The notes under the pieces: model-generated | Told to the model about the DNA's origin: nothing | What the model saw: the letters and a program-made list of their open reading frames with translations, nothing else | The model's database searches: none | Source: Escherichia coli | GTDB lineage: Bacteria > Pseudomonadota > Gammaproteobacteria > Enterobacterales > Enterobacteriaceae | Assembly (NCBI RefSeq): GCF_045037415.1 | Contig: NZ_CP173438.1 | Reading direction: 5' to 3' (one strand) | DNA: 64,000 bases | Made by a program: the position numbers and the translations under genes | Shown: in pieces, positions 21,381 through 25,261 of the stretch | Layout: each line of letters starts with the position of its first letter | Numbering within the stretch: the first letter of the stretch is position 1

Positions 21381-21472
21381 GGAAGGGGTCCTCCTCATGG
21401 GGGGATACGAGAAACGGGCAATTCTACGGCAAGTCTTCAGGCAGGGAAAATAATCTGACAGAAAATTGCCGT

Positions 21473-22429
21473 TCAGTGCTGCTGCAAAAAGTCTTCAATG
21501 TCTGCCAGTGAGGATATCCCTTCCATCGGACCTTGCCGCATTACGGCGAGCGCGCCGCTGGCATTTGCATATTGCAGCGCCTTGTGTGCCGGGAAACCGG
21601 ATAAGAAAAGAGTGATAAACGTTGCGCCAAAGCAGTCGCCTGCACCCGTTGGATCGATAATTTCGATATCGTGACCTGCAACATGCTGGGCGTGTAATGT
21701 ACCGTTTTTAAGCTTGTAATAGCTAGCCCCACGCTGGGCGCGTTTTATCGCCACATGTTTTACGCCGCCGTGGAGAAGATCGCTAACAATCTGTTCCTCT
21801 GACAGATTTTTGTGACGCGCGAAGAAAGGGAGTTCGCTTTCGCTGGGGATAAAAATATCCGTATATTCAATCAAATAATCGAGAGCCTGCGCCATTTCAG
21901 GAATGCTCAGCATCTCTTTGCGAATATTGGGATCGAAAGAAACGGTGCCGCCAGCCGATTTGATCGTCGTTATTGCTTTACGCATGACATCGATCATGCG
22001 AAATGAGAACAACGATGAGCCCACAATATGCAGATGGTTACACTGTTTAAGCAGATCCTTATCAATGTGCTCGGCAGTAAACAAACCGCAGGCGCTGTTA
22101 GGGATATTAAAGACGAAATCCCGCAGCTGGGGATTTTGATAACTCACGAACGCCGTACCTGTGACGGCATTGTTCATAACATGGATCCCATCGGTAATGA
22201 CACCTTCATGACGGAGACGCTCTATAATGAGTCGGGCAAAATCATCATTACCAACACATCCAAAGAAGATGGCCCGATGGGACAGTTTTGCCACCTGAGC
22301 AGCAAAAATTGCTGGCGCACCGCTGGGAAATGGCCCGATAAACTCCCCAGGCTGAGTGAATTTTTGATGTGGGTTGCGGGACAAAAACTCGGCCAGCAAT
22401 TCGCCCATAGCGCAGATAGTTATTGTCAC
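21473..22429 (-). CDS. PfkB-family sugar kinase, 2-dehydro-3-deoxygluconokinase (KdgK)-like
   Basis: N-terminus TITICAMGELLAEF resembles KdgK IAVIGECMIEL; C-terminal motif DPTGAGDCFGATF; GTG start with GAGGGG immediately after the regulator stop codon. Confidence 0.8.
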   Translation of the reverse strand: MTITICAMGELLAEFLSRNPHQKFTQPGEFIGPFPSGAPAIFAAQVAKLSHRAIFFGCVGNDDFARLIIERLRHEGVITDGIHVMNNAVTGTAFVSYQNPQLRDFVFNIPNSACGLFTAEHIDKDLLKQCNHLHIVGSSLFSFRMIDVMRKAITTIKSAGGTVSFDPNIRKEMLSIPEMAQALDYLIEYTDIFIPSESELPFFARHKNLSEEQIVSDLLHGGVKHVAIKRAQRGASYYKLKNGTLHAQHVAGHDIEIIDPTGAGDCFGATFITLFLSGFPAHKALQYANASGALAVMRQGPMEGISSLADIEDFLQQH

Positions 22430-22439
22430 AAAACCCCTC

Positions 22440-23270
22440 TCATTCCTGAAGCCTTTCGCGATTGGACCAGGTAAAGCACTCATTACTGGTATAAAGGATA
22501 ACGAAATCAGCCGACTGCAATTGTTGCTGATATTGTTCGTTAATGCTGCGGCTGACGATCACATTTTCTGCCTGATGCAAATGCCCGATAGCAGCCGTTG
22601 ATGGCGCAGGATCGGCGGCAACGATAACCGTCTTATTCTGGGCATGATCGAAACAGAGCTGCCAGGCAGCGGCGAGTCTGGGAACGTTGATATTTAAAGT
22701 ACCATCAGCATCCAGATGGCTGATTTCCAGAATGCTATGTGTAATGGTGAAATGCTGAAGTGCCTGTTCAAGCTGTTTTCCGGCCAGTGCGGTGTCGGGG
22801 CGCAGCATTTCACTGCCAGCCAGTATTATTTCGCCATCAATAAACTGATTTGCCAGCAGCGCATGTTCGGGATCGTTGGTGATCAGACGCAGTTTTTTCA
22901 CTTCGCTGAGCAATGGAATGATCTTACGGCAGATTGTCCCATGTCCAAGAAATAGCGTGTCACGATCGCGAATTAACCGTGCGCAATGTCGTGCTATTTC
23001 CATTTGTTGTGCCAGAGACAATGGCGCGATCGGTTGTATCGCTTCTGGTTCAGAGGAGAGTGGTGTCGCAATAGCACCGCCAAATGATCGCTTTAAATAT
23101 CCCTGTTGCTCCAGATAACTGAGATCGCCGCGGATCGTCACGCCAGAGACACCAAGTTGCGCAGATAAGTCATCAACTTTGATTTCACCCTGGGCGGCAA
23201 CAATTTCTGCAATTTTTAATCTACGTTTCAGTAAGTTAGACGATTTTCTCGGCACGTTAACACTCTTCAT
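22440..23270 (-). CDS. DeoR-family transcriptional regulator
   Basis: 276-aa ORF with N-terminal HTH (RLKIAEIVAAQGEIKVDDLSAQLGVSGVTIRGDL) and DeoR-type C-terminal effector domain. Confidence 0.8.
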   Translation of the reverse strand: MKSVNVPRKSSNLLKRRLKIAEIVAAQGEIKVDDLSAQLGVSGVTIRGDLSYLEQQGYLKRSFGGAIATPLSSEPEAIQPIAPLSLAQQMEIARHCARLIRDRDTLFLGHGTICRKIIPLLSEVKKLRLITNDPEHALLANQFIDGEIILAGSEMLRPDTALAGKQLEQALQHFTITHSILEISHLDADGTLNINVPRLAAAWQLCFDHAQNKTVIVAADPAPSTAAIGHLHQAENVIVSRSINEQYQQQLQSADFVILYTSNECFTWSNRERLQE

Positions 23271-23288
23271 TGGCCTTTAATGCGTAAC

Positions 23289-23316
23289 ACTATAGCCCCT
23301 TGTATTTTTCTTTGAA
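23289..23316 (-). promoter_or_regulatory. candidate sigma70 promoter of the DeoR regulator-kinase operon
   Basis: Minus strand reads TTCAAA, 16-bp spacer, TATAGT, about 20 nt upstream of the regulator ATG. Confidence 0.4.
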
Positions 23317-23407
23317 AGTTATCCTTCAATCATATCGACAATTCGAAAAGAAGGTGATGCTGCCAACTTACTGATTTAGTGTATGATGGTGTTTTTGAGG
23401 TGCTCCA

Positions 23408-23683
23408 GTGGCTTCTGTTTCTATCAGCTGTCCCTCCTGTTCAGCTACTGACGGGGTGGTGCGTAACGGCAAAAGCACCGCCGGACATCAGCGCTATCTC
23501 TGCTCTCACTGCCGTAAAACATGGCAACTGCAGTTCACTTACACCGCTTCTCAACCCGGTACGCACCAGAAAATCATTGATATGGCCATGAATGGCGTTG
23601 GATGCCGGGCAACAGCCCGCATTATGGGCGTTGGCCTCAACACGATTTTACGTCACTTAAAAAACTCAGGCCGCAGTCGGTAA
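23408..23683 (+). CDS. insA: IS1 InsA
   Basis: 91-aa [40 protein letters not shown]. Confidence 0.93.
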
Positions 23684-24105
23684 CCTCGCGCATACAGCCG
23701 GGCAGTGACGTCATCGTCTGCGCGGAAATGGACGAACAGTGGGGCTATGTCGGGGCTAAATCGCGCCAGCGCTGGCTGTTTTACGCGTATGACAGGCTCC
23801 GGAAGACGGTTGTTGCGCACGTATTCGGTGAACGCACGATGGCGACGCTGGGGCGTCTTATGAGCCTGCTGTCACCCTTTGACGTGGTGATATGGATGAC
23901 GGATGGCTGGCCGCTGTATGAATCCCGCCTGAAGGGAAAGCTGCACGTAATCAGCAAGCGATATACGCAGCGAATTGAGCGGCATAACCTGAATCTGAGG
24001 CAGCACCTGGCACGGCTGGGACGGAAGTCGCTGTCGTTCTCAAAATCGGTGGAGCTGCATGACAAAGTCATCGGGCATTATCTGAACATAAAACACTATC
24101 AATAA
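23602..24105 (+). CDS. insB: IS1 InsB frame, expressed as InsAB' by -1 frameshift
   Basis: 167-aa ORF in the -1 frame relative to insA; slippery ttaaaaaac at 23657-23665. Confidence 0.9.
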
Positions 24106-24170
24106 GTTGGAGTCATTACCATCGAAACGTTCATCCAGCGCCATGACATGTCCATTCGGGAAGCAGCACA

Positions 24171-25217
24171 ATGAAAAACGAAATTTGGTCGTGGATTGGC
24201 GATCTCTCGCAGGTTGCCGGAATTAAACACTATGAGTTACGTAGTGGCAGAGCAAAGGGTACAGAAGCGTTTGATGTCCGTACTGGTGCGGGACTGGCAT
24301 TTACGGTGGTAAAAGATCGCGCGCTGGATATTGCATGGGCCAGCTACAAGGACACTGCGCTCTCTTTTATCACCCCCAACGGTGTTGTCGCCCCCGCTTT
24401 TTTTGAGTCTCAGGGCAACGGGTTTTTACGTAGCTTTTACGCGGGGTTACTGACTACCTGCGGACTTAGCTACATTGGCACACCCTGTGAGGATGAAGGA
24501 GAAACGCTGGGGTTACACGGGCGTTTGGCTGCGACTCCAGCAGAAGAGGTGGGGTATCGCACAGAACGGACCGACGACAGCATTGAATTTGTCATCAATG
24601 GCAAAGTACGGGAAACACGATTGTTCGGTGAAAATCTGACGCTGGAAAGGACCATTCGCTGCCGTTATGGCGAAAATGTAATGCGCATTGAAGACAAGGT
24701 GACTAATCATGGTTTCACCCGCCAGCCGCTGCAAATTCTTTATCACTTTAATTACGGCTGGCCTTTATTATCGCCACAGGCAGAAATCTTGCTGTCGGCT
24801 AAAAGCATAACGCCACGAACTCCGCATGCGGCGGAAGGGTTAACCAGTCATCTGGAGATTTGTACCCCACAGCCCGGTTTTGACGAGCAGGTTTACTATC
24901 TCACGTTGAATAGCGACAGTCAGGGGATGAGTAAAGTTGCGCTGGTGAACGCCGAACTGGGGTGGGGAATTTACGAGAAATTCGACACCATGCAGCTACC
25001 CAACTTTATCCAGTGGAAAAATTTAGGCGCGGGTGAATATGTTATGGGACTGGAGGTCAGTAATAGTTTTCCTGACGGTCGTGATAAAGAACGAGCGCAG
25101 GGGCGTCTGCCCTTTATTGAGCCAGGGGAAACAAAGAAATACTGCTTTGAGCTGGGAATTGTTGATGGCGATGCTGAAATTAGCGCGTTGAAAGCGGAAA
25201 TTGCAGGCTACCGTTAG
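24171..25217 (+). CDS. aldose 1-epimerase (mutarotase)-superfamily protein
   Basis: 348-aa ORF with mutarotase-like motifs GLHG, LYHFNYGW (compare NHVYFNL), EVSNSFPDG (compare ESEFLPDSP) and IEPGETKKYCFEL. Confidence 0.7.
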   Translation: MKNEIWSWIGDLSQVAGIKHYELRSGRAKGTEAFDVRTGAGLAFTVVKDRALDIAWASYKDTALSFITPNGVVAPAFFESQGNGFLRSFYAGLLTTCGLSYIGTPCEDEGETLGLHGRLAATPAEEVGYRTERTDDSIEFVINGKVRETRLFGENLTLERTIRCRYGENVMRIEDKVTNHGFTRQPLQILYHFNYGWPLLSPQAEILLSAKSITPRTPHAAEGLTSHLEICTPQPGFDEQVYYLTLNSDSQGMSKVALVNAELGWGIYEKFDTMQLPNFIQWKNLGAGEYVMGLEVSNSFPDGRDKERAQGRLPFIEPGETKKYCFELGIVDGDAEISALKAEIAGYR

Positions 25218-25225
25218 TTAACGGC

Positions 25226-25261
25226 AATAAAAACGCCGGGTAGCATTAACAGGCCCGGCGT
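25226..25261 (-). terminator. intrinsic terminator after accC, also closing the convergent epimerase gene
   Basis: Stem acgccggg / cccggcgt with a T-run on the minus strand (tttttattg). Confidence 0.65.

Follow-up and report, generated by a model that had tools for sequence, protein, structure and literature searches.

The DNA between yhdT and accC in the window, by which we mean the whole analysed stretch of 64,000 nucleotides of Escherichia coli DNA, is very probably a decayed D-tagatose utilisation island, from which an event involving the insertion sequence IS1 removed 5,519 bp in an ST131-type genome. The complete island has been described as the 'EcN tag cluster', which Nissle 1917 and phylogroup B2 strains carry between accC and yhdT (Ha et al., iScience 2022, PMC9720028). 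The 3.9 kb found here is a remnant of this published island, left by ordinary gene decay; it is already known and does not represent a new element. The original prediction had placed accessory DNA at the yhdT/accC junction, missing from K-12-like genomes, which is borne out by the yhdT-accC spacer of only 109 bp in the empty allele, and its naming of a DeoR regulator, a PfkB kinase, IS1 and a mutarotase-like gene was correct for all four by the ORF list. However, the 3.8 kb which it took as the accessory unit are really the end pieces of an already described island of 8.7 kb and eight genes, and the IS1 is no passenger but stands exactly where 5,519 bp of that island is gone. The features of the locus are as follows:

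21138-21380/21398, minus strand: yhdT, core gene of the left flank (ORF list, PGAP annotation of the identical DNA of strains d1-7 and p4A, junction alignment)
21380-23352: remaining left-hand part of the tag island, which matches the intact island of ST131-type strains at 100% identity
21473-22408, minus strand: PfkB sugar kinase, a tagatose kinase paralogue homologous to ECOLIN_RS18705; open reading frame intact
22440-23270, minus strand: DeoR/GlpR family regulator, homologue of ECOLIN_RS18700; open reading frame intact (annotation of identical DNA)
23271-23352: the 82 bp that remain of the divergent intergenic region, 340 bp long in the intact island (breakpoint placed in the intact intergenic region)
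23353-24120, plus strand: IS1, 768 bp, with insA at 23408-23683 and insB' at 23602-24105
24121-24174, plus strand: 3' stub of the tagatose kinase gene, 54 nt (17 codons and stop), homologue of ECOLIN_RS18675
24171-25217, plus strand: DUF4432 'aldose 1-epimerase family' gene, homologue of ECOLIN_RS18670, the last gene of the tag operon; open reading frame intact
25218-25308: island-haplotype spacer up to the accC stop codon, unlike the empty-allele spacer in sequence
25309-26658, minus strand: accC, core gene of the right flank

BLAST-level homology of the window to the empty allele ends at 21379 and starts again at 25309, and the allele-specific DNA therefore spans 21380-25308 (3,929 bp), beginning with the first base of the yhdT start codon and ending at the base that adjoins the accC stop codon. 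The borders originally proposed, 21399-25233, were a fair approximation that is refined by this comparison. The outermost ~45 bp on each side resemble strongly diverged counterparts of the K-12 spacer in the junction alignment, and yhdT starts with GTG (21380-21378, with AGGAGG 9 nt upstream) in the window haplotype, as opposed to ATG in the empty-site allele. A hairpin at ~25231-25261, which folds with -20.8 kcal/mol (z -3.59) and is followed by a T-run on the minus (accC) strand, is likely the accC terminator; the fold noted in the original prediction is thus real, but it is formed by island-haplotype sequence and is not the K-12 terminator. Similarly, a host-like base composition had been noted, which holds roughly, with a GC content of 48.0% and 50.0% for the two remnant parts and 46.05% for the intact island against 51.4% for the window. 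An integrative genomic island of the integrase/tRNA type was also considered and rejected, as none of the eight island genes encodes an integrase, the annotation of the identical DNA of d1-7 and p4A has no tRNA gene between prmA and acuI, and no direct repeats were seen in the junction alignments at the island borders, which are a start codon and a stop codon.

The accC-yhdT region of Nissle 1917 comprises 8.5 kb and eight genes, is induced by tagatose and is needed for growth on this sugar, while MG1655 is without the tag region (Ha et al., PMC9720028). Mutants that lack the six-gene operon, or just the tagatose kinase gene, no longer grow on tagatose, and the kinase paralogue (ECOLIN_RS18705), which shares 51% identity with the tagatose kinase, did not rescue the tagatose kinase deletion mutant (PMC9720028). 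In our comparisons, the intact island measures 8,679 bp and its eight genes are arranged in two divergent operons, one coding for the DeoR regulator and the kinase paralogue, and the other for a class II tagatose-bisphosphate aldolase, a sugar-binding protein, an ABC ATPase, an ABC permease, the tagatose kinase and the DUF4432 'epimerase'. Strain d1-7 harbors eight genes between yhdT and accC, and the window matches its DNA at 100% on both sides of IS1. Furthermore, window positions 20500-23352 correspond without a mismatch (blastn) to positions 11401-14253 of the intact-island locus L001, of which positions 14254-19772 constitute the segment replaced by IS1, and Nissle 1917 shares 99.5% identity over 1,972 bp with window positions 21381-23352. 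The intact island yields two matches to the NCBIfam TagKinase family (412.9 and 337.5 bits), its aldolase is of the GatY type (NF009374; 529 bits) and its ABC components are RbsB/RbsA/RbsC-like by family search, which together are consistent with a tagatose pathway. Among the genes retained in the window, the PfkB kinase (21473-22408) matches TagKinase NF049991 with 337.5 bits, under the cutoff of 420, the top NCBIfam match of the DeoR regulator is AgaR-like and likewise under the cutoff, and the DUF4432 gene, which matches Pfam PF14486 (E = 2.4e-104), is identical at the DNA level to the WP_000787058.1 gene of d1-7 and p4A.

The window thus has in common with the EcN tag cluster the chromosomal accC/yhdT site and the genes at its ends (homologues of ECOLIN_RS18705, RS18700 and RS18670), and the divergent operon of the DeoR regulator and kinase paralogue is kept whole and identical to that of intact islands. 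In contrast, five of the eight genes, namely those for the aldolase, binding protein, ATPase, permease and tagatose kinase, are lost along with the operon promoter region. Since the six-gene operon retains just its DUF4432 gene and a 54-nt piece of the tagatose kinase gene, the locus is a degraded remnant of the cluster rather than a functional member. The tagatose pathway demonstrated experimentally in Nissle 1917 would be unable to operate from it. The intact island also shares the layout of an ABC transporter with a PfkB tagatose kinase with the tagatose/galactitol clusters of Sinorhizobium meliloti and Agrobacterium tumefaciens. In the rhizobial clusters tagatose 6-phosphate is epimerised to fructose 6-phosphate, as discussed by Ha et al. 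(PMC9720028), whereas the E. coli island combines the host PfkA with its own class II aldolase and carries the DUF4432 gene instead. None of the island-type tagatose machinery that can be compared with these clusters is left in the window. The gat and aga/kba clusters of E. coli encode PTS-dependent pathways for galactitol and N-acetylgalactosamine, with the aldolases GatY and KbaY. The island resembles these in its GatY-like aldolase and a distantly AgaR-like regulator, but differs from them in its locus, in ABC rather than PTS uptake and in being without a GatZ/KbaZ partner. The island aldolase shares 63.7% identity with GatY (Ha et al., PMC9720028), and its gene is among those deleted in the window.

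The 768-bp IS1, which is the sole copy within the window, substitutes for 5,519 bp of the island. The missing stretch begins 82 bp upstream of the DeoR gene and stops 54 nt short of the tagatose kinase gene end. The lost segment comprises the operon promoter region, including the other 258 bp of the intergenic region on the aldolase side, the aldolase gene, three ABC-transporter genes and the tagatose kinase gene minus its last 54 nt. The element is bounded by GGTGATGCTGCCAACTTACTGAT and GGTAATGACTCCAACTTATTGAT, which are typical inverted ends (IS1 family members have imperfect terminal inverted repeats of ~23 bp), the insA/insB' overlap contains the A-run frameshift site TTAAAAAACTC, and the entire sequence is 100% identical to copies annotated as IS1A on E. 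coli plasmids. The IS1 copies in the island of other strains are annotated with a programmed frameshift. Simple insertion of IS1 generates a target-site duplication of 8-9 bp. No such duplication surrounds the window copy, which is flanked by CGAAAAGAA on the left and ATCGAAACG on the right, whereas 8-bp duplications accompany the simple insertions of IS1 into this island in strains EC556 and 20409, a difference that points to an IS1-mediated deletion. Adjacent deletions which start at an IS1 end are known from classical E. coli genetics, first from the gal region in the 1970s, and here too the IS1 is situated exactly at the deletion junction and the flanking duplication is missing.

The 5,519 bp would have been removed either in an IS1 adjacent deletion through intramolecular transposition or when two IS1 copies recombined with each other, and both routes leave the same end product. 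The latter, which is a sub-variant of the explanation that we favor, would require two separate, identically oriented IS1 insertions, located in the divergent promoter region and close to the tagatose kinase gene 3' end, respectively, followed by RecA-dependent recombination with loss of 5.5 kb and one IS1. This two-step route is possible, if somewhat unlikely: it also predicts the missing target-site duplication, and IS1 has repeatedly landed in the island in the same orientation, namely in the gene for the sugar-binding protein (EC556), the tagatose kinase gene (20409) and the ATPase gene (2017_APHA), while a contig of GCA_018492305.1 ends in an IS1 just upstream of the permease gene, oriented as in the window. 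However, two rare insertions rather than one are required, and an IS1 at either window junction was found in none of the 5,426 complete E. coli genomes, nor in the JGI metagenome contigs.

The window is equivalent to the DNA of ST131 strain p4A over 63.2 kb (23,352 bp with no mismatch and 39,880 bp with one); this only SNP is synonymous, and the IS1 replacement is otherwise the sole difference. A Shigella origin, which was suggested by the IS1 together with the partial tag clusters that Ha et al. mention in S. boydii (PMC9720028), is ruled out by this identity to ST131 genomes. The population sample consisted of 5,426 complete E. coli genomes, in 4,004 of which the yhdT/accC site is empty; at 74% empty sites, the locus is not the core DNA that the original prediction had considered as the alternative. 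The island, queried with window positions 21381-23352, is present in 1,421 of the 5,426 genomes, including most phylogroup B2 E. coli, which carry it at the accC-yhdT locus. The epimerase part accompanies the kinase/DeoR part in all 1,421, and at least 80% of the central 5.5 kb is held by 1,420 of them. The IS1 arrangement of the window occurs in 0/5,426 genomes, none of which covers at least 80% of window positions 21100-25500, and the one full-length match to the right-junction query, in strain 20409, represents a different IS1 insertion within the tagatose kinase gene. Exact 32-nt sequences across the two junctions had no match in the JGI metagenome contigs, and none of the matches listed in an exact look-up of the DUF4432 protein (24 of 30,250 index blocks) had the context seen in the window. 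One further IS1 event was observed among those matches. The window allele has been observed once, in a single sequence, and the event is probably recent and confined to the source strain or a small sublineage.

Multicopy repeats such as IS1 are classic points of assembly mis-joins, and an IS1-containing query has a median of ~11 matching places per genome. As such, the structure could reflect a collapse or mis-join at the repeat, with two IS1 copies around an intact 5.5 kb or an IS1 located elsewhere. This is highly improbable, given that both junctions are clean to the base, a finished ST131 genome is collinear with all the rest of the 64-kb window and differs there by a single SNP, and the missing segment is absent elsewhere in the window; even in such a case, IS1 would truncate the tagatose kinase gene and separate the operon from its promoter. 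A self-contained module of ~3.8 kb (kinase, DeoR regulator, IS1 and mutarotase-like gene), acquired as such or representing an ancestral four-gene block, would account for four contiguous genes missing from K-12-like genomes. It can be practically dismissed, since its two parts co-occur in every island genome with 5.5 kb between them in 1,420 of the 1,421, the DNA to the left and right of IS1 is base-identical to intact islands, and the right junction lies within a gene, of which the 54-nt tagatose kinase stub remains.

The source strain is predicted not to grow on D-tagatose, since growth is abolished in the published mutants of another strain in which these genes are deleted. A consensus scan predicts a promoter-like minus-strand site (TTCAAA-16-TATAGT, 23316-23289) that faces the DeoR gene, and the DeoR-kinase pair is probably still transcribed from its own promoter; the operon that the regulator presumably controlled is deleted. 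The DUF4432 gene is cut off from the operon promoter and would be expressed at most weakly, by read-through from IS1. Our search of the literature on ST131 and tagatose returned nothing relevant to the yhdT-accC locus. The finding has little importance beyond annotation, where a decayed D-tagatose island should be entered for this locus. The predicted failure to grow on D-tagatose would set the source strain apart from nearly all other B2/ST131 strains, and the two IS1 junctions provide a strain- or sublineage-specific marker. Tagatose use has been proposed as a possible advantage of B2 strains in the gut (Ha et al., PMC9720028), and for this reason a natural ST131 knockout which keeps the regulator, the paralogous kinase and the DUF4432 gene may serve as a comparison strain, although a minor one.

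As to the origin of the island, Ha et al. prefer horizontal acquisition, based on its GC content and B2-biased distribution (PMC9720028), and the original prediction had left the choice between an old resident lost from K-12 and an acquisition. Our data lean towards an old resident missing from K-12. In Superficieibacter, Klebsiella spallanzanii and an Enterobacter, the island is found at this very locus and has diverged to a degree similar to the flanking core genes, and its presence at one site in three other enterobacterial genera favors long residence. It is likewise found at the accC-yhdT site of a divergent Escherichia, with core-like divergence, and between E. coli lineages it has diverged about as much as its flanks. 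A comparison of the flanks of B2 strains with the island and of non-B2 strains with and without it, aimed at recombination tracts associated with island presence, gave a mosaic of informative sites and no clear breakpoint; the ungapped register was also broken by an indel beyond ~2.3 kb to the right. The shared site in several genera bears on the question of recent acquisition or old origin. A broader proposal, that the island is an old Enterobacteriaceae resident of accC-yhdT rather than a recent B2 acquisition and, in addition, is now being lost lineage by lineage, is one that we consider unlikely to hold in full and advance as speculation. If it were true, the window, along with four or more further IS1 hits that struck this 5.5 kb independently, would represent a loss under way in pandemic ST131, and selection on tagatose catabolism would be relaxed or negative in the ST131 background.

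The order of genes between prmA and accB in the window, as taken from the ORF list and the sequence, is as follows:

18804-19685, minus strand: prmA
19697-21154, minus strand: panF
21138-21380, minus strand: yhdT
21473-22408, minus strand: PfkB sugar kinase
22440-23270, minus strand: DeoR/GlpR regulator
23353-24120, plus strand: IS1 (768 bp)
24171-25217, plus strand: 348-codon gene, PGAP 'aldose 1-epimerase family', Pfam DUF4432 (E = 2.4e-104)
25309-26658, minus strand: accC
26669-27139, minus strand: accB

The presence of extra genes between yhdT and accC, as claimed in the original prediction, is thus confirmed, with a kinase, a DeoR regulator, an IS1 and an epimerase-family gene occupying a gap which measures 109 bp in the empty-site genome SC467. 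Window 21100-25500, used as query, was covered to at least 80% in none of the 5,426 complete E. coli genomes searched, while the left half of this query is present in many of them, with extra genes in their annotation. In strain d1-7 (L001), eight genes are located between yhdT and accC, namely a sugar kinase and DeoR regulator on the first side, in this order from yhdT, and, on the divergent side, genes encoding a class II tagatose-bisphosphate aldolase, substrate-binding protein, ABC ATPase, ABC permease, second sugar kinase and epimerase-family protein. Window positions 20500-23352 and 24121-26500 align to L001 11401-14253 and 19773-22152, respectively, with 0 mismatches each, and the IS1 therefore stands in for L001 14254-19772 (5,519 bp). 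Of the divergent intergenic region (340 bp), 258 bp are missing from the window, as are the genes for the aldolase, binding protein, ATPase and permease; of the second kinase gene, only the final 54 nt remain. The 3.9 kb between yhdT and accC is thus the remnant of a larger island and not a unit.

The larger island is the published D-tagatose utilization (tag) cluster of E. coli Nissle 1917, which occupies the exact same locus and shares 99.5% identity with window 21381-23352; the functional core has been removed from the window by IS1. The original prediction of accessory DNA absent from K-12 was correct, but overlooked the identity of this DNA and the loss of its core. In Nissle 1917, the accC-yhdT interval has been characterized as a region of 8.5 kb with eight genes, which is absent from MG1655 (Ha et al., iScience 2022, PMC9720028). 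D-tagatose induces the six-gene operon >40-fold and its first three genes >1000-fold, while deletion of the operon, or of its kinase gene alone, abolishes growth on tagatose, and the operon confers such growth on K-12, B and W strains provided that the host pfkA is present (PMC9720028). The roles of the DeoR regulator, paralogous kinase and DUF4432 protein were not assayed in that study (PMC9720028). The nearest NCBIfam model for both the operon kinase (412.9 bits) and the divergent paralogue (337.5 bits) is 'tagatose kinase' NF049991 (cutoff 420), while by the same models the aldolase belongs with the GatY-type tagatose-bisphosphate aldolases (529 bits) and the transporter components are nearest to ribose, arabinose and xylose ABC systems.

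Among the 5,426 complete E. coli genomes, the empty-site spacer with its 150-bp flanks was found at no less than 80% query coverage in 4,004, while the kinase/DeoR part, the epimerase part and the central 5.5 kb were found in 1,421, 1,421 and 1,420 genomes, respectively. Within an even sample, the island forms one unbroken piece in 58/59 island-positive genomes. The cluster is reportedly carried by 93% of B2 and 73% of F genomes but by few others, with 'parts' in two S. boydii strains (PMC9720028). In a 2026 paper, the accC..yhdT region is listed as being common to ExPEC strains.

BLAST-level similarity to the empty allele stops at window 21379 and restarts at 25309, coinciding with the first base of the yhdT start codon and with the stop codon of accC. 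Over the outer ~45 bp, both sides still weakly resemble the K-12 spacer, on the left through a TAGAAT/TACAAT hexamer upstream of yhdT and on the right through the AATAAAAA-GCCGG hairpin after accC, and as such the predicted limits of 21399-25233 approximate the DNA that is truly extra reasonably well. The island haplotype has GTG as the yhdT start codon (AGGAGG 9 nt upstream), where the empty allele has ATG. The -10-like hexamer ~40 bp upstream is conserved, being TAGAAT in the window (21421-21426, minus strand) and TACAAT in the empty allele and Superficieibacter; the leader or promoter of yhdT-panF may therefore be common to the two haplotypes in diverged form. The hairpin predicted at the right edge (~25231-25261; -20.8 kcal/mol, z -3.6) is a real fold, but forms part of the island haplotype, where two hairpins lie between the DUF4432 and accC stop codons (25218-25308): AACGCCGGG...CCCGGCGTT, followed on the accC strand by a T-run, and GCGCG...CGCGC, adjoining accC. 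In the empty allele there is only one hairpin, of different sequence (AAGGCCGG...CCGGCCTT). No integrase, tRNA gene or direct repeat was found at the island. The GC content of the intact island is 46.05%, that of the remnants 48.0% and 50.0%, and that of the window 51.4%, in agreement with the published value for the island (-4.9%).

A one-genome-per-species scan identified the tag gene set at the same site in Superficieibacter electus (L008 2044-12486), Klebsiella spallanzanii (L009 2787-12469; without the aldolase gene) and Enterobacter sp. ENT03 (L010 115-10154; stretch covering the accC side only), and it is likewise present at yhdT/accC in the divergent Escherichia genome E69 (L007 2220-12482). 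Third-codon-position identity, a rough measure of age in few genomes, is mostly 47-55% between genera for the island genes (kinase paralogue down to 41%) and 52-56% for prmA and panF, so that divergence is about equal. Within E. coli (ST131 type versus EC556) the values are 91-97% for island genes and 91-98% for flanking genes, whereas between E69 and the ST131 type the island genes (70-78%) are more diverged than the flanks (84-94%). A three-way comparison of the flanks yielded only a mosaic. The original prediction had weighed an old resident against an acquisition; the third-codon identities of island and flanks in these few genomes favour either long residence at the locus with loss from most E. 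coli lineages, or exchange of the allele through homologous recombination in the flanks; they do not favour recent introduction from a distant donor.

The IS1 at 23353-24120, the sole copy within the window, has the usual IS1 ends (GGTGATGCTGCCAACTTACTGAT and GGTAATGACTCCAACTTATTGAT), insA and insB' frames with an A-run frameshift motif, and 100% identity to copies annotated as IS1A on E. coli plasmids. It is flanked by CGAAAAGAA and ATCGAAACG and therefore lacks a target-site duplication, whereas simple insertions in EC556 and 20409 are flanked by 8-bp duplications (AAAAAAGT and AAATATTC, respectively). The deletion could have arisen through IS1-mediated adjacent deletion (intramolecular transposition), or through recombination between two IS1 copies in direct orientation; an IS exactly at a deletion junction without duplication is the product of either route. 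Adjacent deletions by IS1 are classical knowledge, and the one-step adjacent deletion is ranked above recombination because IS1 was found at neither window junction in any of the genomes searched.

Several O25b:H4-ST131 genomes match the first 21 kb of the window at 100% identity. Against the ST131 strain p4A, which carries the intact island, the window shows 0 mismatches across 23,352 aligned bp and 1 mismatch across a further 39,880 bp, the sole base difference in 63.2 kb being at window 35285 (C, T in p4A), which is synonymous in rng (ATC/ATT, Ile169). Since the two otherwise differ only in the replacement of 5,519 bp by IS1, the deletion appears to have occurred very recently, in a phylogroup B2 genome of the ST131 type. 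Annotation of identical p4A DNA places an rRNA operon at window 145-5500 (16S, tRNA-Ile, tRNA-Ala, 23S, 5S, tRNA-Thr, second 5S), the 5S copies (5126-5260 and 5372-5505) being 96% identical. Similarly, identical d1-7 and p4A DNA is annotated with a frameshifted, incomplete cytochrome b/YedZ-like pseudogene fragment in the accB-acuI gap (window ~27544-27930), where the register of the ungapped alignment between the ST131-type sequence and two non-B2 genomes is lost.

Disruption of the island is rare but recurrent. IS1 is inserted in the binding-protein gene of EC556 (L002 15651-16418), the tagatose kinase gene of 20409 (L004 8401-9168) and the ATPase gene of ST131 strain 2017_APHA (L015 ~4996-5757), while in draft GCA_018492305.1 a contig terminates in IS1 shortly upstream of the permease gene (L020 3-227). 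The EC556 and 20409 copies share 93.4% and 96.4% identity with the window copy, indicating insertions independent of the window event, and IS1 follows the operon orientation in all four orientable cases (window, EC556, 20409 and 2017_APHA). In a further draft, GCA_017933415.1 (L016 1490-2020), the tag operon permease is called at 176 residues versus 329, which suggests a frameshift or truncation, and possibly further decay. The window deletion allele was found in no other genome searched; both the island and its mode of decay are already known, and the deletion is ordinary IS-mediated gene loss.

Upstream of the DeoR-kinase pair, 82 bp are retained, with a promoter-like site among them (TTCAAA-16-TATAGT, minus strand; consensus match only), and the pair is probably still transcribed, although the operon presumed to be the target of the regulator is gone. 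The DUF4432 gene itself is intact, but it lacks the operon promoter and the overlap with a translated kinase gene, and any expression would come by read-through from IS1, which lies in the same direction. The window lacks the uptake, first-phosphorylation and dedicated aldolase genes of the tag island, and the paralogous kinase is no substitute, since the published kinase deletion mutant retains this paralogue yet fails to grow (PMC9720028). As such, growth of the strain on D-tagatose is not expected.
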